Source of the DNA: a virus
Lineage: Duplodnaviria > Heunggongvirae > Uroviricota > Caudoviricetes
IMG/VR virus record: IMGVR_UViG_2695420596_000001
Location: 1-13,605 of that record
Strand: one strand, 5' to 3'
Length of the DNA stretch: 13,605 nt
Shown here: positions 1 to 13,605 of the stretch, piece after piece
How positions within the stretch are numbered: the first letter of the stretch is position 1
Layout of the letters: each line of letters begins with the position of its first letter
Translations under genes and position numbers: made by a program
Notes under the pieces: generated by a model
What the model was told of the DNA's origin: nothing
The model's database searches: none
The model's input: the letters and a program-made list of their open reading frames with translations, nothing else

Positions 1-221
1 ATTACGGTAACGACTGGCAGACGCTGGAGCTGGTGTTCACCGCCGGCAGTGCCACGGTTACTCCGAAACTGAATGGAGTGGCTGGCCCGGCATTCCAGGT
101 TATAAAAGACAGTCTGACACTGGGACTGAATGCGCTGACGCTGACGGATGTTACAAAAAATGCAGCGTATGGCGTTGAGATAGAAAGTCTGGTGCTGGAG
201 ATAAATGCACCGGCAGCATAA
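1..221 (+). CDS. 3' end of an upstream gene, 5'-truncated by the window edge; product unknown
   Basis: Frame 3 is open from the window edge to TAA at 219-221 (tail ...YGNDWQTLELVFTAGSATVTPKLNGVAGPAFQVIKDSLTLGLNALTLTDVTKNAAYGVEIESLVLEINAPAA). It is Cys-free and beta-strand-like. No family recognised; it does not resemble the C-terminus of lambda Q as I recall it. Confidence 0.4.
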   Translation, partial: YGNDWQTLELVFTAGSATVTPKLNGVAGPAFQVIKDSLTLGLNALTLTDVTKNAAYGVEIESLVLEINAPAA

Positions 222-222
222 T

Positions 223-263
223 AAAAAAAGAGCCAGCGACTGACCTGAAAGAAGACGCTGGCT
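223..263 (-). terminator. Hairpin with adjacent A7 tract (U7 on the minus strand): candidate minus-strand intrinsic terminator, copy 1
   Basis: Perfect 8 bp inverted repeat AGCCAGCG (231-238) / CGCTGGCT (256-263) with a 17 nt loop, preceded on + by AAAAAAA (223-229). It has terminator geometry only when read on the minus strand. Confidence 0.3.
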
Positions 264-370
264 AAAAGGCCTTATATGTTTGTAGAGACTTATTTTTCAC
301 AGACAGCAATGATGCCTGTCAATATATTATCAATATGCGGATTGTTTCAGTTACAGATGCTTTATTAAGG

Positions 371-413
371 AAAAAAACAGCCAGCACTGACTTTCGGTGG
401 AGAGGTGCTGGCT
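371..413 (-). terminator. Hairpin with adjacent A7 tract: candidate minus-strand intrinsic terminator, copy 2 (paralogous to 223-263)
   Basis: Inverted repeat CAGCCAGCAC (378-387) / GTGCTGGCT (405-413) with a 17 nt loop, preceded by AAAAAAA (371-377). Shares the GCCAGC(G)ACTGAC core with copy 1. Confidence 0.3.
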
Positions 414-483
414 CAGAAGGATAGTTGGATTTCACATGATACTTATGCCTGGCGGTATATTTTCTGACAGACAGTGACGGGTG

Positions 484-511
484 TTGTCAAGATATTGTGT
501 CATTTATAACC
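484..511 (+). promoter_or_regulatory. Candidate late promoter (pR'-like)
   Basis: TTGTCA (484-489) and TATAAC (505-510) with a 15 bp spacer, about 80 bp upstream of a strong terminator and about 160 bp upstream of the holin start. This is the position of pR'/qut in lambdoid late regions. Hexamers were picked by eye and the spacer is short. Confidence 0.25.
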
Positions 512-588
512 TGAATCAGGGGAGGCCGGAATGTTATCTGGCATTTTTAGCAGAGCCTGAATGCCATAATCACGGCTCCCGGAGTTGG

Positions 589-628
589 CCGTCAGTGGGT
601 GACACTGGCGGCTTTTTTGTTTTTCTTT
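589..628 (+). terminator. Rho-independent terminator (tR'-like) upstream of the holin
   Basis: 10 bp stem GCCGTCAGTG / CACTGGCGGC (one G-U pair), 5 nt loop GGTGA, followed by TTTTTTGTTTTTC. Confidence 0.55.
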
Positions 629-668
629 ACTTTCATTTTCTGTCGGCGGTGACGGAGACATACATCAG

Positions 669-875
669 ATGGAAAAAATCACAACAGGTGTGTCATACAC
701 CACGTCAGCGGTGGGGACGGGATACTGGTTACTGCAGCTGCTGGACAAAGTCTCTCCGTCCCAGTGGGTGGCAATAGGTGTGCTGGGAAGTCTGCTGTTT
801 GGCCTGCTGACGTATCTGACTAACCTGTATTTCAAAATCAGAGAGGACCGTCGTAAGGTGGCGCGGGGAGAGTAG
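669..875 (+). CDS. S: Class II holin (pinholin), phage 21 S-like, 68 aa
   Basis: Translation [68 protein letters not shown] closely parallels the S21 pinholin as I recall it (two TM helices, C-terminal ...[17 protein letters not shown]). SD-like GGAGAC lies 9 nt upstream of the ATG. Confidence 0.85.
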
Positions 876-1130
876 TCGATGAATAAACAATACGAACTGG
901 TTGTAAAATGAATATTTCTAACTGAAAAAACGTTCCATGAGGTAAGAAAAGGTCACAGGCAATCAATAACAGGACGTGATGAAAGACCCTTGCATTTGTG
1001 CGCTTTCTCTTTAGATAGCAGCAGATACTGAAAATCTGAGTTGTCGGGGAGTCAGGGATACAGCTGTGCAAGAGTTGGTCATTGTGATTCCATTGAAATC
1101 CTGTATGCCATGAAGGGCAGGATTTTATGG

Positions 1131-1445
1131 CTACCTGAGCTTTGGTGATAGTAAGTTGAAAATTCGCATTTTTTGCTGACATGCGTAACGAGAATCCCAT
1201 AAGCAGGGAGGACTTAATTCTTCATTAACCCATGCGTTGATATTATGTTTCAGCCGTTGAAGCATCAGCGGTGTTAATGTTGTGGTAATAATATCCAGCG
1301 TTTTATGTGAGATCTTACCGTAAGGGTCTGCAAGAATGCTGCTTGTTGCTTCGTTATTATCTGCCATCAGAAGAAGTAACTCTGATTTAACGTTTTCTGT
1401 CATTAGTTGTAAAAATCTTCTGCGCAAACTTTCTTTACTGTTCAT
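1131..1445 (-). CDS. Hypothetical protein (104 aa), opposite-strand cargo ORF inserted between holin and endolysin
   Basis: Intact minus-strand ORF (MNSKESLRRRFLQLMTENVKSELLLLMADNNEATSS...) in a visibly AT-rich ~690 bp segment that interrupts the otherwise contiguous S-R arrangement. A TATAAT-like hexamer sits upstream on the minus strand (around 1511-1518). The composition is helix-rich and protein-like; no family recognised. Confidence 0.4.
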   Translation of the reverse strand: MNSKESLRRRFLQLMTENVKSELLLLMADNNEATSSILADPYGKISHKTLDIITTTLTPLMLQRLKHNINAWVNEELSPPCLWDSRYACQQKMRIFNLLSPKLR

Positions 1446-1562
1446 TTATATGGCTTCATTTGTTGTAATCTGCTGCGTCTCAAGGGATATGTTTATGAGA
1501 GCGACCATGAGTGTTGGATTATATACCTAACATATCAAGGGATTAGAAATCGATAAATCCCC

Positions 1563-2096
1563 ATGCACGAAAAAATAAAATACGGCCTGTCGGCTGCCGT
1601 TCTGGCGCTGATTGGTGCAGGTGCTTCTGCGCCTGAAATCCTCGACCAGTTTCTGGATGAAAAGGAAGGTAACCACACCACGGCATACCGTGATGGTGCG
1701 GGGATCTGGACCATCTGCCGTGGTGCCATTCTGGTGGATGGTAAGCCTGTTATTCCTGGCATGAAGCTGTCAAAGGAAAAATGCGACCGGGTTAATGCCA
1801 TCGAACGTGACAAGGCGCTGGCATGGGTGGAGAAAAACATCCGGGTGCCGCTGACCGAACCCCAGAAAGCGGGGATCGCGTCATTCTGTCCGTACAACAT
1901 TGGCCCCGGTAAGTGCTTCCCGTCGACGTTTTATAAACGAATTAATGCAGGCGATCGAAAAGGTGCCTGTGAGGCGATTCGCTGGTGGATTAAGGACGGT
2001 GGCAGAGACTGCCGTATCCGTTCAAATAATTGCTACGGTCAGGTCTCACGGCGTGACCAGGAGAGCGCGCTGGCGTGCTGGGACATCGACAGATAG
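1563..2096 (+). CDS. R: Phage endolysin (lysozyme family, SAR-type N-terminus), 177 aa
   Basis: N-terminal weakly hydrophobic Gly/Ala-rich segment (KYGLSAAVLALIGAGASAP) followed by a lysozyme-like domain. It resembles the R21/RrrQ-type prophage endolysins of E. coli as recalled. A SAR endolysin is the expected partner of a pinholin. Confidence 0.88.
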   Translation: MHEKIKYGLSAAVLALIGAGASAPEILDQFLDEKEGNHTTAYRDGAGIWTICRGAILVDGKPVIPGMKLSKEKCDRVNAIERDKALAWVEKNIRVPLTEPQKAGIASFCPYNIGPGKCFPSTFYKRINAGDRKGACEAIRWWIKDGGRDCRIRSNNCYGQVSRRDQESALACWDIDR

Positions 2097-2185
2097 CAGA
2101 ATATTTTCCTGAAAAATGACGTTGGCCAACGCGGGTGGATAACACGAAATCCTGAAAACTGGTAAAACCTAAGTGAATAAAAGTA

Positions 2186-2226
2186 AAAACCCCGTTTGTT
2201 GGCAGCAAGCGGGGTTTTGTGTTTTC
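2186..2226. terminator. Bidirectional intrinsic terminator between endolysin and spanin genes
   Basis: Stem AAAACCCCG (2186-2194) / CGGGGTTTT (2210-2218) with loop TTTGTTGGCAGCAAG, flanked by an A-run upstream and TTTTGTGTTTT downstream. Confidence 0.55.
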
Positions 2227-2316
2227 TGACCTTGAGCAAGGCAAGGGAGAAATTATGGGTAGGGAGGTACTTTCCCTGTGAGGAAGTATAAAAGATTCTT
2301 TCTGAGGTTGTCCATT

Positions 2317-2430
2317 ATGAAAGGCATTGAAGTGGAGACGCCAGCCAGTCTGGATTTAACAAGAGCGGCAGCTTTTGCCATTCGTATTGTGGCCATTGCT
2401 GTTCTGGTCTGGGCAATCCGTTGGTGGTGA
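2317..2430 (+). CDS. Small ORF (37 aa) with a C-terminal hydrophobic helix, stop codon abutting the Rz start
   Basis: ATG at 2317 with GAGG 9 nt upstream; translation MKGIEVETPASLDLTRAAAFAIRIVAIAVLVWAIRWW; its TGA (2428-2430) is followed one base later by the Rz ATG (2432). Not in the ORF track because it is under 60 aa. Confidence 0.3.
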   Translation: MKGIEVETPASLDLTRAAAFAIRIVAIAVLVWAIRWW

Positions 2431-2431
2431 T

Positions 2432-2899
2432 ATGAACCGTGTTCTGTGCGTGGTTATCATTGTCCTGCTGGTGGCCTGTGGTGCGCTTAGTCTGGGGCTG
2501 AATCATTACCGTGATCACGCCATCATCTACAAAGAGCAGCGCGATAAAAAAGCCAGTGAGCTGGAGCTGGCGAACGCGACAATTACTGATATGCAGATAC
2601 GCCAGCGTGATGTCGCTGCACTTGATGCCAGATACTCGAGGGAATTAGCCGATGCGAGAGCTGAAAATGAAACTCTGCGTGCTGATGTTGCCGCTGGTCG
2701 TAAGCGCCTGCGGATCAACGCCACCTGCTCCGGTACCGTGCGTGAAGCCACCGGCACCTCCGGCGTGGATAATGCAACCGGCCCCCGACTGGCAGACACC
2801 GCTGAACGGGATTATTTCATCCTCAGAGAACGGCTGATGGCAATGCAGAAGCAACTGGAAGGAGCACAGGAATATATCCGTACCCAGTGTATACCGTGA
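2432..2899 (+). CDS. Rz: Rz inner-membrane spanin (i-spanin), 155 aa
   Basis: Translation from ATG 2432 (MNRVLCVVIIVLLVACGALSLGLNHYRDHAIIYKEQRDK...RDVAALDARY...TAERDYFILRERL...) is collinear with lambda Rz as recalled: N-terminal TM helix then coiled-coil periplasmic domain. Confidence 0.85.
   Translation: MNRVLCVVIIVLLVACGALSLGLNHYRDHAIIYKEQRDKKASELELANATITDMQIRQRDVAALDARYSRELADARAENETLRADVAAGRKRLRINATCSGTVREATGTSGVDNATGPRLADTAERDYFILRERLMAMQKQLEGAQEYIRTQCIP
2652..2837 (+). CDS. Rz1: Rz1 outer-membrane lipoprotein spanin (o-spanin), embedded in the +1 frame of Rz
   Basis: MRELKMKLCVLMLPLVVSACGSTPPAPVPCVKPPAPPAWIMQPAPDWQTPLNGII... has a lipobox (VSAC) and a proline-rich mature region nearly collinear with lambda Rz1; it lies wholly inside Rz in another frame. 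Confidence 0.8.
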   Translation: MRELKMKLCVLMLPLVVSACGSTPPAPVPCVKPPAPPAWIMQPAPDWQTPLNGIISSSENG

Positions 2900-3234
2900 T
2901 ATTTTGTTATGAAGGTGTTACTGGTAACGTTAAGGTAATTTAACAAAGAGTCAGTTCCGGACTTTATAGTGTGCTCAGTTCATGGCCAAAAACGATTTCT
3001 GTGATAAATATTTTGAATATTATTTACAGGTAAATGGAGTGGGGCACATGGATAGAAATATTACAATAGAGAATGAAGTATATGCCCGTATTGTATGGGC
3101 AGAGAAGGCAAAAACACGGTAATTCCGTGTGTTGCCATGATACCTGATTGGCAGAATAGTTGTTTGGTTTTGAGTATATAGTCAGCGTTTTTTGTTCAGT
3201 AATTGCTCCCTCAAAAAATAATAAAACAAGGTGA

Positions 3235-3345
3235 TTATTTTTGTTTATTATTTAGTTTTTTTGTGTGTTGTTTTATTGTTTTTGCGTGGTTTGTTTTTTA
3301 TTGTTATTTCATTAAGGGAAGGTAAATTCAGGATGGCAGTCTGTA
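3235..3345 (+). promoter_or_regulatory. T-tract-rich upstream region and candidate promoter for the PerC-like gene
   Basis: Successive T-tracts (TTGTTTT-type repeats) across 3237-3306, followed by TTGTTA (3301-3306), a 16 bp spacer and TAAATT (3323-3328), then GGAGG (3353-3357) and ATG 3364. Confidence 0.3.
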
Positions 3346-3363
3346 GATAATCGGAGGTCACTT

Positions 3364-3678
3364 ATGCTACATGATCACGTGGCAGAATGTCTGGAGAAAA
3401 AAGGACTGTACCGGAGAGCAGCTGAACGATGGGCAAAAGTGATGGTACAGCTAAGTGATGACCAGAAAAGAAAAGTGGCGGCACAGAAACGAGCAGAGTG
3501 TTTGCGTAAGGCGCGCCGGACTCCGGTTTCACCGGTGAACCTGACCGAAATAAAACAAGCGGTCAACAGACTACATTCTGAGTTGGGAATGGGATTTGAA
3601 GAGCGGCGGGTATTCCGACGATATAAAGGGACAGGAGAACAGAATACGTCCGGAAACGCGCGGTCAAAAAAATGCTAA
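3364..3678 (+). CDS. PerC-family-like small transcriptional regulator (104 aa), prophage cargo gene
   Basis: N-terminus MLHDHVAECLEKKGLYRRAAERWAKVMVQ matches the pattern I associate with the PerC/Pch family (AE.LE..G..RRAA.RW..V). Good SD (GGAGG, 6 nt spacer). Family call is from memory of the motif, not a search. Confidence 0.45.
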   Translation: MLHDHVAECLEKKGLYRRAAERWAKVMVQLSDDQKRKVAAQKRAECLRKARRTPVSPVNLTEIKQAVNRLHSELGMGFEERRVFRRYKGTGEQNTSGNARSKKC

Positions 3679-3714
3679 AAAATATCTGAGAGCGTTATTG
3701 CCTGTTACCATAAG

Positions 3715-3741
3715 AAAAAGCGACTTTAGTGGTCGCTTTTT
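3715..3741. terminator. Bidirectional intrinsic terminator shared by the convergent PerC-like and RHH genes
   Basis: AAAAA-GCGAC-TTTAGTG-GTCGC-TTTTT; the stem is flanked by an A-run on one side and a T-run on the other, between the convergent stops at 3678 and 3760. Confidence 0.5.
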
Positions 3742-3759
3742 GTGTCATATATAAGTCGT

Positions 3760-3984
3760 TTAAGTAAACCTGTCTGAACAGGTGCTCTGGTCGTGTTTGT
3801 CTTTGTTGGGTACAAATTGAGCATGTTTTTCATTAATTAATCTTCTTCTGCAGGCTTCAATAACCCACGCTGAAAAATTACCTGAACCTTTCTGATCAAG
3901 AGCGATGTTAATTTGTTCAATCATTTGGTTAGGAAAGCGGATGTTGCGGGTTGTTTTTCTGCGGGTTCTGTTCTTCGTTGACAT
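3760..3984 (-). CDS. Ribbon-helix-helix (Arc/Mnt/CopG-type) DNA-binding protein, 74 aa
   Basis: MSTKNRTRRKTTRNIRFPNQMIEQINIALDQKGSGNFSAWVIEACRRRL...: an Arg-rich N-terminal arm, then a beta-strand/helix/helix pattern (IRFP..E.I..A...G.S.NFS..V.EA) typical of Arc/Mnt-like repressors. Confidence 0.6.
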   Translation of the reverse strand: MSTKNRTRRKTTRNIRFPNQMIEQINIALDQKGSGNFSAWVIEACRRRLINEKHAQFVPNKDKHDQSTCSDRFT

Positions 3985-4153
3985 GAGGTTGCCCCGTATT
4001 CAGTGTCGCTGATTTGTATTGTCTGAAGTTGTTTTTACGTTAAGTTGATGCAGATCAATTAATACGATACCTGCGTCATAATTAATTATTTGACGTGGTT
4101 TGATGGCGTAGATGCACGTTGTGACATGTAGATGATAATTATTATCATTTTGC

Positions 4154-4180
4154 GGGTCCTTTCCGGCGATCCGACAGGTT
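4154..4180 (+). other. cosQ-like element (terminase nicking/termination accessory site)
   Basis: GGGTCCTTTCCGGCGATCCGACAGGTT immediately upstream of cosN is essentially the sequence I recall preceding the lambda right cohesive end. Confidence 0.55.
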
Positions 4181-4183
4181 ACG

Positions 4184-4195
4184 GGGCGGCGACCT
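4184..4195 (+). other. cosN: 12 nt cohesive-end sequence GGGCGGCGACCT
   Basis: Exact match to the canonical lambda cohesive end, and the following ~45 nt (CGCGGGTTTTCGCTATTTATGAAAATTTTCCGG) match the lambda left end as recalled. It sits about 185 bp upstream of the terminase small subunit gene. Confidence 0.85.
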
Positions 4196-4217
4196 CGCGG
4201 GTTTTCGCTATTTATGA

Positions 4218-4335
4218 AAATTTTCCGGGATCCATGTCCGGTTTCTCTTCAAGTTAACTATATGAAAAATATAAAAACAGGTCTTCTGTGAACCGGACAT
4301 GAACAAAAAACAGACATGTAAACCGGACATGACCG
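4218..4335 (+). repeat. cosB-like terminase small-subunit binding region: three copies of AACCGGACATG (one inverted, two direct) around an A/T-rich block
   Basis: Inverted copy at about 4220-4233 (CCATGTCCGGTTTC), direct copies at 4291-4302 and 4321-4332, with an A/T-rich segment (4240-4288) between the first and second. This R3-I1-R2-R1 architecture is classic for lambdoid cosB, but the repeat sequence is not the lambda one. Confidence 0.5.
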
Positions 4336-4378
4336 GTTTTGTTGTGATTGTGAGGTGAGAGTTTTTGCGAGGTGAGGA

Positions 4379-4888
4379 GTGGCTACGCAGACTGAAGTTG
4401 CCAGGCATTTAAGTCTGACCGATCGCCAGCTTCGCAGATTGCAGAAATTGCCGGGTGCCCCGATATCGAATAAGCGAGGGCAACTGGATCTGGATGCCTG
4501 GCGCGATTTTTACATATCGTATCTGAGGAGAAGTAAAAACGATGTGCCTGATGGCGATAGCGAAGACGACTATGAGGAGAAATTGCTTATTGCCAGATGG
4601 GAACTGACAGCAGAACAGGCTGTTACACAGCAGTTAAAAAATGAGGTGTCAAAAGGAAAACTTATTGACACCGGGTTCTGTATTTTTGCCCTCAGTAAGC
4701 TGGCAATGGCGTTATCCAGTACGCTTGATTCCATCCCTTTATCCATGCAGCGACAGTTTCCTGATTTAACACCGCGCCATCTTGACCATCTGAAAACCCT
4801 TATTGCTAAGGGGGCAAATCAGTGTGCGCGGGCAGGGGATAAATTACCGGATTTACTCGATGAATATATCAGAGCAACAACTGAATAA
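4379..4888 (+). CDS. nu1: Terminase small subunit (Nu1-like), 169 aa
   Basis: GTG start with AGGTGA SD. N-terminal HTH-like segment and C-terminal region (TGFCIFALSKLAMALSSTLDSIPLSMQRQFPDLTPRHLDHL...LPDLLDEYI) are collinear with lambda Nu1 as recalled. Overlaps the large subunit gene. Confidence 0.85.
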   Translation: MATQTEVARHLSLTDRQLRRLQKLPGAPISNKRGQLDLDAWRDFYISYLRRSKNDVPDGDSEDDYEEKLLIARWELTAEQAVTQQLKNEVSKGKLIDTGFCIFALSKLAMALSSTLDSIPLSMQRQFPDLTPRHLDHLKTLIAKGANQCARAGDKLPDLLDEYIRATTE

Positions 4889-6788
4889 TATGATGGCTGC
4901 CGTTTCGGTTGCGCTGCAGCCTCTGGTCAGGGTTGTACCAATGACGGCAGTTGAATGGGCTGATCAAAATTATTATCTGCCTAAAGAATCTTCATATGGT
5001 GAGGGAGAATGGAAAACGCTGCCATTCCAGATCGCCATTATGAACTGTATGGGTAACGACCAGGTTCGCACGGTTAACCTGATTAAATCTGCCCGTGTTG
5101 GCTATACAAAGATGTTGCTGGGGGTGGTCGGGTATTTTATTGAGCATAAATCCCGAAACAGTCTGCTTTTTCAGCCCACGGATTCTGCCGCTGAAGATTT
5201 TATGAAGTCTCACGTGGAGGCGACGATTCGGAACGTGCCATGCCTGAAAGACCTTTCCCCATGGCTGGGTCGTAAACATCGTGACAATACTCTCACGCTG
5301 AAACGCTTTTCATCGGGCGTCGGTTTCTGGTGCCTGGGCGGTGCAGCCGCCAAAAACTACCGTGAAAAATCCGTGGACGTGGTCTGCTATGACGAGCTTT
5401 CCTCGTTCGAGCCGGATGTCGAAAAAGAGGGCTCGCCAACCCTGCTGGGGGATAAGCGTATTGAGGGCTCTGTATGGCCAAAATCCATTCGCGGCTCGAC
5501 GCCTAAAATCAAAGGTACCTGCCAGATCGAAAAAGCGGCCAACGAGTCGGCGCATTTCATGCGTTTCTATGTGCCCTGCCCGCACTGTGGGGAGGCGCAG
5601 TATCTGAAATTTGGCGATGAATCCACGCCTTTTGGCCTTAAATGGGAGAAGGACAGCCCCGAAAGCGTTTTCTACCTCTGTGAACATCATGGCTGCGTGA
5701 TCCATCAGTCTGAGCTTGACCAGAGTAACGGGCGCTGGATCTGTGAAAACACGGGTATGTGGACCCGTGACGGCCTGATGTTTTTCAGCGCCCGGGGGGA
5801 TGAAATTCCGCCGCCGCGCTCCATCACGTTCCATATCTGGACGGCGTACAGTCCGTTCACCACCTGGATACAGATAGTCTATGACTGGCTGGATGCACTG
5901 AAAGATCCCAACGGCCTGAAAACCTTTGTGAACACCACGCTGGGCGAGACCTGGGAAGAGGCCGTGGGCGAAAAACTCGATCACCAGGTACTGATGGATA
6001 AGGTGGTGCGTTACACGGCGGCGGTGCCTGCCCGGGTGGTTTATCTGACGGCGGGCATTGACTCGCAGCGAAACCGTTTTGAGATGTATGTCTGGGGATG
6101 GGCACAGGGAGAGGAAGCCTTTCTGGTGGATAAAATCATCATTATGGGCCGTCCCGATGAGGAAGAGACGCTGTTACGTGTGGATGCGGCGATCAACAAA
6201 AAATACTGCCATGCAGACGGAACCGAAATGACCATTTCCCGTGTCTGCTGGGACACCGGGGGGATCGATGGTGAAATTGTCTATCAGAGGTCAAAAAAAC
6301 ACGGTGTTTTCCGGGTGCTGCCGGTAAAAGGCGCATCTGTCTATGGCAAGCCGGTGATCACCATGCCGAAAACCCGCAATCAGCGGGGCGTGTATCTGTG
6401 TGAAGTGGGGACGGACACCGCAAAAGAAATTCTCTATGCCCGTATGAAAGCCGATCCCACTCCTGCGGATGAAGCCACGTCGTATGCCATCCGTTTTCCT
6501 GATGATCCGGAGATTTTTTCGCAGACAGAGGCGCAGCAACTGGTCGCGGAAGAGCTTGTGGAGAAGTGGGAAAAAGGAAAGATGCGTCTGCTGTGGGATA
6601 ACAAAAAGCGGCGTAACGAAGCGCTGGACTGCCTGGTGTATGCCTACGCGGCATTACGTGTGTCCGTGCAACGCTGGCAGCTTGATCTGGCTGTACTGGC
6701 AAAATCCCGGGAAGAAGAGACGACCCGGCCAACCCTGAAAGAACTGGCAGCGAAGCTGTCCGGAGGAGTGAATGGTTACAGTCGCTGA
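4860..6788 (+). CDS. A: Terminase large subunit (gpA-like), about 642 aa from ATG 4860
   Basis: Strong collinearity with lambda gpA (AVEWADQNYYLPKES..., KSARVGYTKMLL..., GSVWPKSIRGSTPK..., TAYSPFTTW..., WDNKKRRNEALDC...). The ORF-track start at 4803 is an upstream in-frame alternative; MNISEQQ at 4860 matches the lambda A N-terminus MNISNSQ. Confidence 0.93.
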   Translation: MNISEQQLNNMMAAVSVALQPLVRVVPMTAVEWADQNYYLPKESSYGEGEWKTLPFQIAIMNCMGNDQVRTVNLIKSARVGYTKMLLGVVGYFIEHKSRNSLLFQPTDSAAEDFMKSHVEATIRNVPCLKDLSPWLGRKHRDNTLTLKRFSSGVGFWCLGGAAAKNYREKSVDVVCYDELSSFEPDVEKEGSPTLLGDKRIEGSVWPKSIRGSTPKIKGTCQIEKAANESAHFMRFYVPCPHCGEAQYLKFGDESTPFGLKWEKDSPESVFYLCEHHGCVIHQSELDQSNGRWICENTGMWTRDGLMFFSARGDEIPPPRSITFHIWTAYSPFTTWIQIVYDWLDALKDPNGLKTFVNTTLGETWEEAVGEKLDHQVLMDKVVRYTAAVPARVVYLTAGIDSQRNRFEMYVWGWAQGEEAFLVDKIIIMGRPDEEETLLRVDAAINKKYCHADGTEMTISRVCWDTGGIDGEIVYQRSKKHGVFRVLPVKGASVYGKPVITMPKTRNQRGVYLCEVGTDTAKEILYARMKADPTPADEATSYAIRFPDDPEIFSQTEAQQLVAEELVEKWEKGKMRLLWDNKKRRNEALDCLVYAYAALRVSVQRWQLDLAVLAKSREEETTRPTLKELAAKLSGGVNGYSR

Positions 6789-6978
6789 ACTACAGGCGCT
6801 ACGTCAGGCGCGCCTTGATTTATTAACCGGTAAACGGGTGGTGTCTGTCCAGAAAGATGGTCGCAGAATTGAATATACGGCGGCTTCTCTGGATGAGCTT
6901 AACCGGGCGATCAATGATGCGGAGTCGGTACTGGGGACAACCCGACGTCGCCGTCGTCCGCTGGGAGTGAGGTTATGA
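6772..6978 (+). CDS. W: Head-stabilisation / head-tail joining protein W-like, 68 aa
   Basis: LTGKRVVSVQKDGRRIEYTAASL...RRRRRP parallels lambda gpW ([23 protein letters not shown]...QRRRGP); same length; overlaps the terminase stop and the portal start (ATGA). Confidence 0.85.
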   Translation: MVTVAELQALRQARLDLLTGKRVVSVQKDGRRIEYTAASLDELNRAINDAESVLGTTRRRRRPLGVRL

Positions 6979-8672
6979 AACGAACGCCTGTCCTGATTGA
7001 TGTGAACGGCGTTCCGCTTCGTGAGAGTCTCAGCTACAACGGGGGCGGCGCAGGATTTGGCGGGCAAATGGCGGAGTGGTTGCCACCGGCGCAGAGTGCC
7101 GATGCAGCCCTGCTGCCTGCGTTGCGTCTGGGGAATGCCCGGGCAGATGATCTGGTGCGCAATAACGGGATAGCGGCCAATGCGGTGGCCCTGCATAAGG
7201 ATCATATTGTCGGGCATATGTTTCTGATCAGCTACCGTCCGAACTGGCGCTGGCTGGGGATGCGGGAGACTGCGGCAAAAAGTTTTGTCGATGAGGTGGA
7301 GGCGGCCTGGTCGGAATACGCCGAAGGGATGTCTGGCGAGATCGACGTGGAAGAGAAACGCACGTTTACGGAATTTATTCGTGAAGGTGTGGGCGTTCAT
7401 GCGTTTAACGGCGAAATCTTTGTGCAGCCGGTCTGGGATACGGAGAGCACGCAACTGTTTCGTACGCGTTTTAAAGCCGTGAGTCCGAAACGGGTGGACA
7501 CGCCAGGACACGGTATGGGGAACCGTTTTCTGCGGGCCGGGGTGGAGGTCGATCGATATGGCCGTGCCGTTGCGTACCATATCTGTGAGGATGATTTTCC
7601 GTTCTCTGGTAGTGGACGATGGGAACGGATCCCGCGTGAACTACCCACCGGGCGTCCGGCCATGCTGCATATTTTCGAGCCGGTGGAGGACGGGCAGACC
7701 CGTGGGGCTAATCAGTTTTACAGCGTCATGGAACGGCTGAAGATGCTGGATTCCCTGCAGGCAACACAGCTTCAGTCGGCCATTGTGAAAGCCATGTATG
7801 CAGCGACGATTGAAAGTGAACTTGATACCGAAAAGGCCTTTGAATATATCGCCGGTGCGCCGCAGGGGCAGAAGGATAATCCGCTTATTAATATTCTGGA
7901 TAAGTTCTCCACCTGGTATGACACGAATAACGTGACGCTGGGCGGTGTCAAAATTCCGCACCTTTTCCCCGGTGATGATCTGAAACTGCAGACTGCGCAG
8001 GATTCAGACAATGGATTTTCGGCGCTTGAACAGGCGCTGCTGCGGTATATCGCCGCCGGTCTTGGCGTTTCCTACGAACAGTTGTCCCGGGATTACTCGA
8101 AGGTCAGTTATTCAAGTGCCCGCGCCTCCGCCAATGAGTCGTGGCGCTATTTTATGGGACGACGAAAATTTATTGCGTCCCGGCTGGCCACGCAGATGTT
8201 TTCCTGCTGGCTGGAAGAGGCACTTCTTCGGGGGATTATTCGTCCGCCACGGGCGCGTTTTGATTTTTATCAGGCGCGATCAGCCTGGTCACGGGCTGAG
8301 TGGATTGGAGCCGGAAGAATGGCCATTGACGGGCTCAAGGAAGTCCAGGAATCAGTGATGCGCATTGAGGCCGGACTGAGCACGTATGAGAAAGAGCTGG
8401 CGCTGATGGGCGAGGATTATCAGGACATTTTCCGCCAGCAGGTCAGGGAATCTGCTGAGCGACAAAAAGCCGGACTCTCACGTCCGGTGTGGATAGCGCA
8501 GGCGTATGAGCAGCAGATAGCGGAGAGTCGCAGGCCGGTACCGGGGTTTCTCTTTAGCATGGCAGAAATGTGTTTCATGCTTTTCGGGCGAAGGATATCC
8601 GACTTCTGTACGGAATGGCAAGTGGCGGTTAATTTATTCAGGGGAAGGCTGTATGGGAAAAGGTGGCGGTAA
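6975..8672 (+). CDS. B: Portal protein (gpB-like), 565 aa, with a non-homologous C-terminal ~45 aa extension
   Basis: Collinear with lambda gpB across most of its length ([11 protein letters not shown]..., [13 protein letters not shown]..., [17 protein letters not shown]..., [13 protein letters not shown]..., STYEKE...). From roughly residue 520 the sequence (...[45 protein letters not shown]) has no counterpart in lambda B and runs into the J start. Confidence 0.85.
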
Positions 8673-11600
8673 GGCACACACGCCTCGTGAGGCGAAGGAT
8701 AATCTCAAATCCACGCAGATGATGAGTGTGATTGATGCGATTGGTGAGGGACCGATAGAAGGTCCGGTGAAGGGACTGCAGAGTATTCTGGTGAACAAAA
8801 CCCCACTGACGGACACGGACGGCAATCCCGTGATACACGGTGTGACGGCGGTCTGGCGCGCCGGGGAGCAGGAGCAGACACCACCGGAAGGCTTTGAGTC
8901 CTCCGGAGCTGAAACCGGACTGGGCGTGGAAGTGACGAAGGCAAAACCGGTGACGCGCACCATTACGTCCGCGAACATTGACCGCCTGCGGGTTACCTTC
9001 GGGGTGCAGTCACTGGTGCAGACCACGTCAAAGGGCGACCGTAATCCTTCCTCTGTCCGGATTCTGATTCAGTTACAGCGTAATGGCCGCTGGGTGACGG
9101 AAAAGGACGTCACCATTAACGGCAAGACCACCTCACAGTTCCTGGCCTCGGTGATTCTGGATAATCTGCCTCCCCGGCCCTTTAACATCCGGATGGTCAG
9201 GGAGACGGCGGACAGCACCACGGACCAGCTGCAGAATAAGACGCTGTGGTCGTCATACACCGAAATCATCGATGTGAAACAGTGCTACCCGAACACGGCC
9301 ATTGTGGGGCTGCAGGTGGATGCGGAGCAGTTCGGCGGCCAGCAGATGACGGTGAACTACCATATCCGCGGTCGCATCATCCAGGTACCGTCAAACTATG
9401 ACCCGGAAAAACGCACGTACAGCGGCATCTGGGACGGCAGCCTGAAACCGGCATACAGCAACAACCCGGCCTGGTGCCTGTGGGACATGCTGACTCACCC
9501 GCGCTACGGCATGGGAAAACGTCTGGTGGCGGCGGATGTTGACAAGTGGGCGCTGTATGCCATCGGGCAGTACTGCGACCAGACGGTCCCGGATGGTTTC
9601 GGGGGCACAGAGCCGCGGATGACCTTTAATGCGTACCTGTCACAACAGCGTAAGGCGTGGGACGTTCTCAGTGATTTCTGCTCGGCGATGCGCTGTATGC
9701 CGGTATGGAACGGCCAGACGCTGACGTTCGTTCAGGACCGCCCGTCGGATGTGGTGTGGCCGTACACCAACTGCGATGTGGTGGTGGATGATAACGGCGT
9801 GGGGTTTCGCTACAGCTTCAGCGCCCTGAAGGACCGCCACACGGCGGTGGAGGTGAATTACACCGACCCGCAGAACGGCTGGCAGACCTCCACGGAACTG
9901 GTGGAAGACCCGGAAGCCATACTGCGCTACGGGCGCAACCTGCTGAAGATGGATGCGTTCGGCTGCACCAGTCGCGGTCAGGCCCACCGTGCCGGGCTGT
10001 GGGTGATAAAGACCGGACTGCTGGAAACGCAGACGGTGGATTTCACGCTCGGGTCACAGGGGCTGCGTCACACACCCGGTGACATTATTGAAATCTGTGA
10101 TAACGACTATGCCGGGACCATGACCGGCGGACGTGTCCTGTCCATCGATGCCGCCAGCCGCACCCTGACGCTGGACCGTGAGGTGACACTGCCGGAGACC
10201 GGTGCCGCCACGGTGAACCTGATTAACGGCAGCGGTAAGCCGGTGAGTGTGGACATCACCGCACACCCCGCGCCGGACCGGATACAGGTCAGCACCCTGC
10301 CTGATGGTGTGGAGACATACGGTGTATGGGGACTCTCCCTGCCGTCACTGCGCCGTCGCCTGTTCCGCTGTGTCTCCGTCCGGGAAAACACGGACGGCAC
10401 CTTTGCCATCACGGCGGTGCAGCACGTACCGGAAAAAGAAGCCATCGTGGATAACGGTGCCCGCTTTGAGCCGCAGTCAGGCACCCTGAACAGCGTCATC
10501 CCTCCGGCAGTGCAGCACCTGACGGTGGAGGTGAGCGCAGCTGACGGCCAGTATCTGGCGCAGGTGAAATGGGACACGCCGCGGGTGGTGAAGGGCGTGC
10601 GCTTCAGTCTGCGCCTGACCAGTGGTAAGGGAACGGATGCCAGACTGGTGACCACCGCCATCACTGCGGATACAGAGCATCGTTTCAGTGGTCTGCCGCT
10701 CGGGGAATACACCCTGACAGTCAGGGCAATTAACAGTTATGGCCAGCAGGGGGAACCGGCCACCACCACGTTCAGGATTAATGCACCTGCGGTACCCGCC
10801 ACGATTGAGCTGACACCGGGCTATTTTCAGATAACAGCGGTCCCGCGTCTTGCCGTTTATGACCCGACGGTACAGTTTGAGTTCTGGTTCTCGGAAAAGC
10901 GGATTGCGGATATCAGGCAGGTTGAAACCGCAGCCCGCTATCTTGGCTCGGCGCTGTACTGGATAGCTGCCAGTATCAATATCAAACCGGGCCATGATTA
11001 TTATTTTTATATCCGCAGTGTGAATACTGTTGGCAAATCGGCATTCGTGGAGGCTGTCGGTCGGGCGAGCGATGATGCGGAAGGTTACCTGGATTTTTTC
11101 AAAGGAGAAATCGGGAAAACACATCTGGCCCAGGAGCTGTGGACGCAGATTGATAACGGTCAGCTTGCGCCGGACCTGGCTGAAATCAGGACGTCCATTA
11201 CGAATGTCAGCAATGAAATCACGCAGACCGTCAATAAAAAACTGGAAAATCAGAGTGCGGCAATCCAGCAGATACAGAAAGTTCAGGTTGATACAAATAA
11301 TAACCTGAACAGCATGTGGGCCGTGAAACTGCAGCAGATGCAGGACGGACGCCTTTATATTGCGGGTATCGGTGCCGGTATTGAGAATACGCCAGCAGGA
11401 ATGCAGAGTCAGGTGCTGCTGGCGGCAGACAGGATTGCGATGATTAATCCTGCGAATGGCAACACAAAGCCGATGTTTGTTGGTCAGGGCGATCAGATAT
11501 TTATGAATGAAGTGTTCCTGAAATATCTGACGGCTCCCACCATTACCAGCGGCGGTAATCCTCCGGCATTTTCCCTGACACCGGACGGGCGGCTGACGGC

Positions 11601-12126
11601 GAAAAATGCCGATATCAGCGGTAACGTGAATGCGAACTCCGGGACGCTCAACAACGTCACGATTAACGAGAACTGTCGGGTTCTGGGAAAATTGTCCGCG
11701 AACCAGATTGAAGGCGATCTCGTTAAAACAGTGGGCAAAGCTTTCCCCCGGGATTCCCGTGCACCGGAGCGGTGGCCATCAGGAACCATTACCGTCAGGG
11801 TTTATGACGATCAGCCGTTTGACCGGCAGATTGTTATTCCGGCGGTGGCATTCAGCGGCGCTAAACATGAGAAAGAGCATACTGATATTTACTCCTCATG
11901 CCGTCTGATAGTGCGGAAAAACGGTGCTGAAATTTATAACCGTACCGCGCTGGATAATACGCTGATTTACAGTGGTGTTATTGATATGCCTGCCGGTCAC
12001 GGTCACATGACACTGGAGTTTTCGGTGTCAGCATGGCTGGTAAATAACTGGTATCCCACAGCAAGTATCAGCGATTTGCTGGTTGTGGTGATGAAGAAAG
12101 CCACTGCAGGCATCACGATTAGCTGA
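8653..12126 (+). CDS. J: Tail tip / host-specificity protein J, 1157 aa
   Basis: Collinear with lambda gpJ from the N-terminus ([22 protein letters not shown]...) through the FN3-like region and conserved block ([40 protein letters not shown]). It diverges in a central segment and in the C-terminal receptor-binding region. Confidence 0.95.
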
Positions 12127-12144
12127 ATTTTATAACCCAGATAC

Positions 12145-12172
12145 GGGCGCCAGAAATGGCGCCTTTTTTATT
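12145..12172 (+). terminator. Intrinsic terminator downstream of J
   Basis: GGCGCCA-GAAA-TGGCGCC stem-loop followed by TTTTTTATT. Confidence 0.55.
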
Positions 12173-12193
12173 GCAGAAAAGCGAGAGGTAATT

Positions 12194-12793
12194 ATGCGTA
12201 AATTATGTGCTGTTATTTTGTCCGCAGTAGTCTGGCAGGTCGCCGCTGCTACGCCAGCGAGTGCAGCAGAACATCAGTCCACGCTGAGCGCGGGGTATCT
12301 CCATGCCTCGACGAACGTTCCCGGTAGTGATGATCTGAACGGGATTAACGTGAAATACCGTTATGAGTTTACGGACGCGCTGGGGCTGATTACGTCCTTC
12401 AGTTATGCCAATGCTGAGGATGAGCAAAAAACGCGCTACAGCGATACCCGCTGGCATGAAGATTCCGTGCGTAACCGCTGGTTCAGCGTGATGGCGGGGC
12501 CGTCTGTACGCGTGAATGAATGGTTCAGCGCGTATGCGATGGTGGGTGTGGCTTACAGCCGTGTGTCGACTTTCTCCGGGGATTATCTCCGCGTAACTGA
12601 CAACAAGGGGAAAACGCACGATGTGCTGACCGGAAGTGATGACGGTCGCCACAGCAACACGTCTCTGGCGTGGGGGGCTGGCGTGCAGTTTAACCCGACC
12701 GAATCCGTGACCATTGACCTTGCTTATGAAGGTTCCGGTAGTGGCGACTGGCGAACGGATGCATTTATTGTTGGTATCGGATACCGTTTCTGA
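12194..12793 (+). CDS. lom: Lom-like outer membrane protein (Ail/Lom family beta-barrel), 199 aa
   Basis: Signal peptide (MRKLCAVILSAVVWQVAAATPASA) and C-terminal ...AYEGSGSGDWRTDAFIVGIGYRF matching lambda Lom; conserved GINVKYRYE motif; position immediately after J as in lambda. Confidence 0.9.
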   Translation: MRKLCAVILSAVVWQVAAATPASAAEHQSTLSAGYLHASTNVPGSDDLNGINVKYRYEFTDALGLITSFSYANAEDEQKTRYSDTRWHEDSVRNRWFSVMAGPSVRVNEWFSAYAMVGVAYSRVSTFSGDYLRVTDNKGKTHDVLTGSDDGRHSNTSLAWGAGVQFNPTESVTIDLAYEGSGSGDWRTDAFIVGIGYRF

Positions 12794-12896
12794 CAACAGA
12801 CGCCGATTTATCTTCTGTAAATATTGTTATGATACGCAGGTTCATCCACCTTATGGGGTGAACTGCGTTTGAGGAAACGTAAAGTTACACTGTCCT

Positions 12897-12932
12897 GAAG
12901 CCCGTGGCGTCACTGCTGCGGGCTTTTTTTTA
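12897..12932 (+). terminator. Intrinsic terminator downstream of lom
   Basis: AAGCCCG ... CGGGCTT stem followed by a T8 run. Confidence 0.5.
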
Positions 12933-12945
12933 TTGGTGGAAAAGT

Positions 12946-13605
12946 ATGACAGTAAAAATTTCTGGCGTGCTTAAAGACGGCACAGGAAAACCGGTAGAGA
13001 ACTGCACCATTCAACTGAAAGCCAGACGGACCAGCAGCACGGTGGTGGTGAACACGGTGGCCTCTGAAAATCCGGATGAAGCCGGTCGTTACAGCATGGA
13101 CGTTGAGTACGGTCAGTACAGCGTCATTCTGTTGGTGGAGGGCTTCCCGCCGTCACATGCCGGGACCATCACCGTTTATGAAGATTCTCAACCCGGTACG
13201 CTGAATGATTTTCTCGGTGCCATGTCGGAGGATGACGTCCGGCCGGAGGCACTGCGCCGTTTTGAACTGATGGTGGAAGAGGTGGCGCGTCACGCTGAGG
13301 AGGCGAAGAAGAATGCCGGAGAGGCGGAGACGTCAGCGAGGAATGCCGGCATATCAGCCAGTCAGGCAGAAGAGAGCGCTGCAAATGCTGACACTTCAGC
13401 AGGGGAGGCATCGGAGTCAGCCCGGCAGGCGGCAGAAAGTGCAGCCTCAGCAAAGCAGTCAGAGGATGCGTCCTCGTCCTCGGCTTCTGCGGCCGCTCAA
13501 AAAGCCAGTGAGTCATCACAAAGTGCAGCAGAAGCTGAATTGTCAAGAAAGACGGCAGAAAGTGCAGCCGGTAATGCAGCCAGGGATGCAACGACCGCAA
13601 CAGAA
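12946..13605 (+). CDS. stf: Side tail fibre protein Stf, N-terminal 220 codons (3'-truncated by the window edge)
   Basis: MTVKISGVLKDGTGKPVENCTIQLKARRTSSTVVVNTVASENPDEAGRYSMDVEYGQYSVILLVEGFPPSHAGTITVYEDSQPGTLNDFL... is near-identical in pattern to the lambda Stf N-terminus, followed by the Ala/Ser/Glu-rich repeat region. GGTGGA SD. The frame is open to the window end. Confidence 0.9.
   Translation, partial: MTVKISGVLKDGTGKPVENCTIQLKARRTSSTVVVNTVASENPDEAGRYSMDVEYGQYSVILLVEGFPPSHAGTITVYEDSQPGTLNDFLGAMSEDDVRPEALRRFELMVEEVARHAEEAKKNAGEAETSARNAGISASQAEESAANADTSAGEASESARQAAESAASAKQSEDASSSSASAAAQKASESSQSAAEAELSRKTAESAAGNAARDATTATE

Follow-up and report, generated by a model that had tools for sequence, protein, structure and literature searches.

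A probable 11,531-bp internal deletion of head and tail-shaft genes in a lambda-like prophage of Escherichia coli

Gene content of the contig

The stretch of DNA analysed here (the window) comprises 13,605 bases with no N and is the entire contig CXZG01000049.1 of the E. coli draft assembly GCA_001283165.1, a short-read draft contig from a repeat-rich prophage region. Genes are on the plus strand unless indicated, and positions are those of the window. The contig begins in the 3′ end of a SASA-family esterase gene (1-221) and ends within the 5′ part of a tail fibre gene (12946-13605), both of which are repeated among lambdoid prophages, and such repeats probably cut the contig at both ends.

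Upstream of the cos site we found a lysis cassette (669-2899) consisting of a holin gene (669-875, Pfam Phage_holin_2_1), a lysozyme gene (1563-2096, Pfam Phage_lysozyme) and an Rz-like gene (2432-2899, Pfam Phage_lysis), with 99.8% identity to the CD45 prophage. Between the Rz gene and cos there is a gene for a PerC-family transcriptional regulator (3364-3678) and, on the minus strand, a DUF3950 (YlcI/YnfO) gene (3760-3984); prophages of attaching-and-effacing E. coli typically carry accessory genes in this interval.

The cosN site (GGGCGGCGACCT, 4184-4195, plus strand) has the exact lambda sequence and lies 184 nt upstream of the Nu1 gene. Window positions 4184-4228 match lambda 1-45 at 100%, and 4184-4224 match phage 21 1-41 at 95%. 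It is followed by an intact gene for the terminase small subunit (Nu1-like, 4379-4888, Pfam Phage_Nu1), whose DNA is the same as in the prophage of E. coli fS25a and whose product shares 40% identity with lambda Nu1 (tblastn). An intact gene for the large subunit (A-like, 4860-6788, Pfam GpA_ATPase and GpA_nuclease) encodes a product 66% identical to lambda gpA over 639 aa, and next to it lies the intact head-tail joining gene W (6772-6978, Pfam gpW), which gives a tblastn match to lambda W. The portal open reading frame comes next (6975-8672, 565 aa, Pfam Phage_portal_2) and proved to be a fusion, as described below.

Directly behind it lies an intact gene for the tail-tip and host-specificity protein J (8653-12126, 1157 aa, GpJ Pfam domains). 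Its DNA is that of the fS25a gpJ gene; with lambda it shares about 77% of its DNA sequence, and the product is 68% identical to lambda gpJ over 1153 aa. The lom gene (12194-12793, Pfam Ail_Lom) encodes an Ail/Lom outer-membrane protein with 40% identity to lambda Lom. Last comes a side tail fibre gene (stf-like, 12946-13605, Pfam phage_tail_N) that runs past the contig end; its 5′ part encodes a product 72% identical to residues 1-179 of lambda orf-401. In the related fS25a and CD45 prophages, type III effector genes are found past the fibre genes.

Thus cos is followed by Nu1, A, W and B (the portal gene), with J, lom and stf downstream, all of them on the same strand. Judged from its sequence, the window represents the late region of an E. 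coli prophage of the lambda type, with phage 21-type packaging and portal genes and lambda-type tail-tip genes. The order cos-Nu1-A-W-B ... J-lom/stf is shared by CD45, phage 21 (OL657228.1; 94.5% DNA identity with window 4934-8538) and lambda (NC_001416.1). In lambda and phage 21, however, about 11 kb of head and tail genes lie between B and J, and their 60-nt I-J spacer is unrelated to the sequence that precedes J in the window (8539-8652).

The sequence missing between the portal gene and J

The closest relative is the intact prophage of fS25a (NZ_CM176579.1, about 2,820,500-2,846,000), located beside potB/potA, which has the same terminase, W, first 521 aa of the portal, J, lom and the part of the fibre gene held by the contig. 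Its late region reads, in order, Nu1, A, W, portal, S49 peptidase (C/Nu3), D, E, FI, FII, Z, U, V, G, T, H, M, L, K, I, J, lom and fibre. Coordinates of this prophage region are given below as L003, those of CD45 as L002 and those of TB4019 (NZ_AP038817.1) as L001. Direct alignment placed window 2426-8538 on L003 2356-8469 and window 8539-13605 on L003 20001-25067. The left flank, at 3271-8538 (5.27 kb, up to L003 8469), is 100% identical to fS25a, and the right flank, at 8539-13605 (5.07 kb), differs from it by one mismatch (at 13176). The breakpoint lies exactly at 8538|8539, where every phage and E. coli match either ends or begins.

A mosaic boundary lies further upstream. All 37 left-side differences from fS25a (34 mismatches and 3 gaps) are in window 2426-3270, whereas window 1-2425 is CD45-like (99.8%) and matches fS25a at about 89-94% in patches; the holin/lysozyme region of fS25a is unlike this part of the window.

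The window is devoid of L003 8470-20000, that is, of 11,531 bp that lie between the two flanks in fS25a. The missing DNA begins with the final 29 nt of the portal gene, continues through the block from C to I and ends with 227 nt of the 341-nt I-J spacer. The genes lost are C/Nu3, D, E, FI, FII, Z, U, V, G, T, H, M, L, K and I, annotated in fS25a as 15 genes (16 counting Nu3). No remnant of the C-I block was detected in the window by tblastn with the 15 fS25a block proteins (best E = 0.1), nor did any turn up when head and tail proteins of lambda and fS25a were used as queries. The complete head and tail set from C/Nu3 to I, which lies between B and J in an intact, virion-competent lambdoid phage, is therefore missing from the window.

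An earlier note, made from the letters of this DNA, had proposed an internal deletion of the head and tail-shaft block that left cos, the terminase, portal, tail-tip and fibre genes in place. The comparison with fS25a, which carries all of these genes in the absent 11,531 bp, supports the deletion, and the Pfam, tblastn and cosN matches bear out the list of retained genes, to which W and lom should be added. The size suggested at that time, about 15 kb, was too large: against fS25a the loss is 11,531 bp, and in lambda the distance from the end of B to the start of J is about 11.1 kb. The alignment to lambda, phage 21 and prophage genomes, which had been recommended for locating the breakpoints, placed them in the 3′ end of the portal gene and in the I-J spacer.

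Over residues 1-521 (6975-8538) the product of the portal frame is identical to the 530-aa portal encoded by the prophages of fS25a and CD45. The native last 9 codons are absent (29 nt of the gene lost), and the last 44 residues are new, being read from the former I-J spacer. The frame closes with a stop codon ending at 8672, while J starts at 8653, which gives a 20-nt overlap. By tblastn, lambda gpB residues 7-522 align to window 6987-8528. The previous description of this frame, with about 520 residues collinear with gpB, about 45 unrelated ones and a 20-nt overlap with J, was thus correct.

The same could not be said of a short frame ending at 8630-8632, which had been suggested to be the 3′ end of gene I. 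This frame falls within the 114 nt of I-J spacer closest to J (8539-8652, L003 20001-20114). Gene I of fS25a ends at L003 19773, 227 nt before the right breakpoint, the short frame is closed by a TAG at 8555-8557, inside the right-hand parental sequence, and is open only downstream of this codon, and its product bears no resemblance to the C-terminus of I (...KVVVIGRQA). The right breakpoint is in the I-J intergenic spacer, not in gene I.

The fusion protein is deposited as CTR79685.1 under the name 'capsid protein of prophage', with one NCBI contig on record. This name is misleading for the product of a truncated and extended portal gene. In an exact look-up among about 15 billion proteins, the fusion protein was found in CXZG01000049.1 and in one Logan run only. 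A 521-aa portal of the same cluster (P0007) had the look of a second truncation at the same residue; it turned out to be an N-terminally shorter call with a normal C-terminus.

The flanks follow the order of an intact relative with one mismatch in 10.3 kb, and the sharp breakpoint cuts a gene short, as expected of a defective prophage produced by deletion. We consider it very probable, on these alignments, that the window derives from a prophage in which one recent, non-homologous internal deletion removed 11,531 bp, from the 3′ end of the portal gene to the J-proximal spacer. The deletion would be recent, since the flanks have hardly diverged and have decayed no further.

A larger rearrangement, in which two lambdoid prophages of one chromosome, or a prophage and an incoming phage, were joined by ectopic non-homologous recombination, could produce a similar junction. 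Such partners would be at hand, as the number of places per E. coli genome that match the window has a median of 4 and reaches 25; moreover, window 1-2425 follows CD45 and not fS25a, which points to mosaic ancestry, and the contig is too short to show what adjoins either end. However, both flanks match the same fS25a prophage with that single mismatch, whereas on the J side the divergence of other prophages is 1-12% (identity is 99.0% for DEC5E, about 97.5-97.9% for the others listed and 88% for CD45). The order and orientation of the flanks are also those expected of one prophage. We therefore regard an inter-prophage join as very unlikely and an internal deletion as the better reading.

Authenticity and distribution of the junction

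A junction seen in a short-read draft contig of a repeat-rich prophage region, and unique to the assembly of this strain among everything searched, could be a chimeric join made during assembly or library preparation, with the real prophage intact. Arguing against this is a second assembler: the independent Logan assembly of run ERR124658 contains an unbranched contig of 4,012 bases that is identical to window 4866-8877, spans the junction and encodes the fusion protein. ERR124658 is either the read set of GCA_001283165.1 or that of a different isolate, and both assemblies may share any library artefact. Misjoins occur at shared repeats, yet here the parents share 0 bases at the join; a word-overlap assembler therefore needs junction-containing reads to build it. 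There are also no Ns. Because the second assembly has the same junction and the parents share no sequence there, misassembly is unlikely, and for an artefact of either kind we see very little chance. The unbranched course of the contig across the junction also argues against a co-existing intact copy. A search of the literature for ERR124658, CXZG01 and GCA_001283165 found no paper.

The portal-J order could also be native to a distinct element, either a phage with its head genes elsewhere or a satellite that borrows capsids. Nothing specific speaks for this, except that cos and terminase, needed by a helper-dependent element, are kept. In a megablast of window 6900-9400 against 50,697 phage records, 253 matched, each of them up to 8538 or from 8539 on, and none of the 253 covered at least 80% of the junction-spanning query. 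Likewise, 300 nt centred on the junction matched one half or the other in 2,199 of 5,426 complete E. coli genomes, many at 100% (megablast), while not one of the 5,426 crossed the junction. The exact 40-mer of the junction was absent from the GTDB species representatives, the JGI metagenome contigs and IMG/VR.

In addition, the flanks are identical to a full-length prophage, and the portal gene has lost its end and runs on into non-coding spacer, which looks like the outcome of an accident rather than a gene boundary made by design. A phage satellite or cos-type PICI would be a small element that has an integrase, a regulator and a replication module of its own, is devoid of the helper's lysis and large terminase genes and is conserved in this form among relatives. 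The window, which covers the late region and not the integrase and replication modules, has a full lysis cassette and a large terminase identical to those of full-length prophages, and among the genomes and records searched no relative has the junction. The probability of a native order is, in our judgement, close to nil. The earlier note had named misassembly evidence and a native portal-J order as findings that would speak against a deletion; neither appeared, as the junction was reproduced by a second assembly and the native order was found in none of the phage records and E. coli genomes searched. On these searches, we take the junction of the deleted prophage to be a private allele of one strain.

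Consequences, related elements and breakpoint anatomy

According to the scheme that we favour, illegitimate recombination in vivo would have removed the DNA starting 29 nt before the end of the portal gene and stopping 114 nt upstream of J. The portal frame would then have run into the former spacer, which would account for the 44 additional residues and for the 20 nt shared with J. The genes that remain show no damage and have one orientation, and a late transcript from the late promoter could, if lambda biology applies, still span Nu1-A-W-B′-J-lom-stf. We infer that the element makes no capsid or tail shaft, so that no virions would be formed without another phage's proteins.

Deleted defective lambdoid prophages are well known and routine in E. 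coli, and the B-J deletion fits the known pattern. Of the 10 lambda-like prophages of E. coli O157 Sakai, only 3 have a full set of morphogenetic genes, and some of the defective Sp prophages are packaged with proteins from co-resident prophages (Asadulghani et al. 2009, PMC2669165). The element described here resembles the Sakai Sp series and the K-12 cryptic prophages in being a lambda-like prophage that lost morphogenetic genes by deletion. It differs from them in its breakpoints and in being a private allele of one strain.

Because cos and the terminase genes are kept, packaging in trans by a co-resident lambdoid prophage is conceivable by analogy. A stronger proposal would make the element a helper-dependent mobile element which, having kept cos, terminase, portal, J and stf, is packaged in borrowed capsids and tails or donates J/stf by recombination. 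If this were true, induction of a co-resident lambdoid prophage would permit packaging, and the loss of 11.5 kb would provide cargo room; we nevertheless give this proposal hardly any credence.

A second deletion in the morphogenetic block was found in a sister prophage of four chicken isolates (TB4019, TB4328, Z1323CEC0018 and Z1323CEC0010), whose late region is about 95-99% identical. Here about 7.4 kb are missing, from the end of FII into I, but the head genes are kept. In TB4019 the join is at L001 15341-15353 and connects the 3′ end of FII to the middle of I; in comparison to CD45 (L002 32297-39668), the chicken-isolate prophage is without Z, U, V, G, T, H, M, L, K and the 5′ part of I. 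This deletion is an independent event.

The B-J deletion has little import beyond annotation. The contig is best labelled as a defective prophage whose portal pseudogene is truncated and extended, and the prophage should not be counted as inducible or virion-forming. It is also a clean, datable example of early prophage decay, with a single deletion and almost nothing else changed in comparison to an intact relative. Surveys of prophage inactivation in E. coli, and of the late genes that persist (J, lom, fibre), could make use of it.

At the breakpoint itself (8538-8539, L003 8469 joined to 20001) the left parent reads ...GTCGCAGGCCGG|AAGAGGAG... and the right parent ...AAACCCCGGTATCTGCTGA|TACCGGGGTTTCTC..., and the junction cannot be slid by even one base against fS25a. 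We looked for microhomology or direct repeats at the breakpoints; with 0 bp shared, a simple microhomology-mediated deletion is not supported. The tetranucleotide CCGG is found immediately 5′ of the left breakpoint and again 2 nt 3′ of the right breakpoint, but a join via CCGG would yield a sequence other than the one observed.

The intact I-J spacer of fS25a contains a very stable hairpin (L003 19981-20014, AAACCCCGGTATC-TGCT-GATACCGGGGTTT) with a folding energy of -30.8 kcal/mol (z = -7), the other strand being similar. The right breakpoint lies 2 nt into its 3′ arm, so that the 5′ arm and loop are gone, while window 8539-8549 retains most of the 3′ arm (TACCGGGGTTT); the J ribosome-binding region is also inside 8539-8652. 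In the window the same stretch folds at -12.5 kcal/mol (z = 0.7), that is, the hairpin is destroyed. The I-J hairpin escaped a simple terminator scan of fS25a on account of its interrupted T-run; in phage 21 an annotated terminator is also located between I and J. It is a matter of speculation whether the hairpin had a role in the deletion, for example through breakage or replication stalling there. Equally speculative is a weaker variant of the helper-dependent proposal, in which deletions of this kind would repeatedly have a breakpoint at the strong I-J hairpin.

Among these phages the I-J spacer varies in length and content, with 60 nt in lambda (15445-15504) and phage 21 and 341 nt in fS25a (L003 19774-20114). 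In CD45 (L002 39849-40699) and TB4019 (L001 15533-16383) it contains a reverse-strand sodC (superoxide dismutase) gene.
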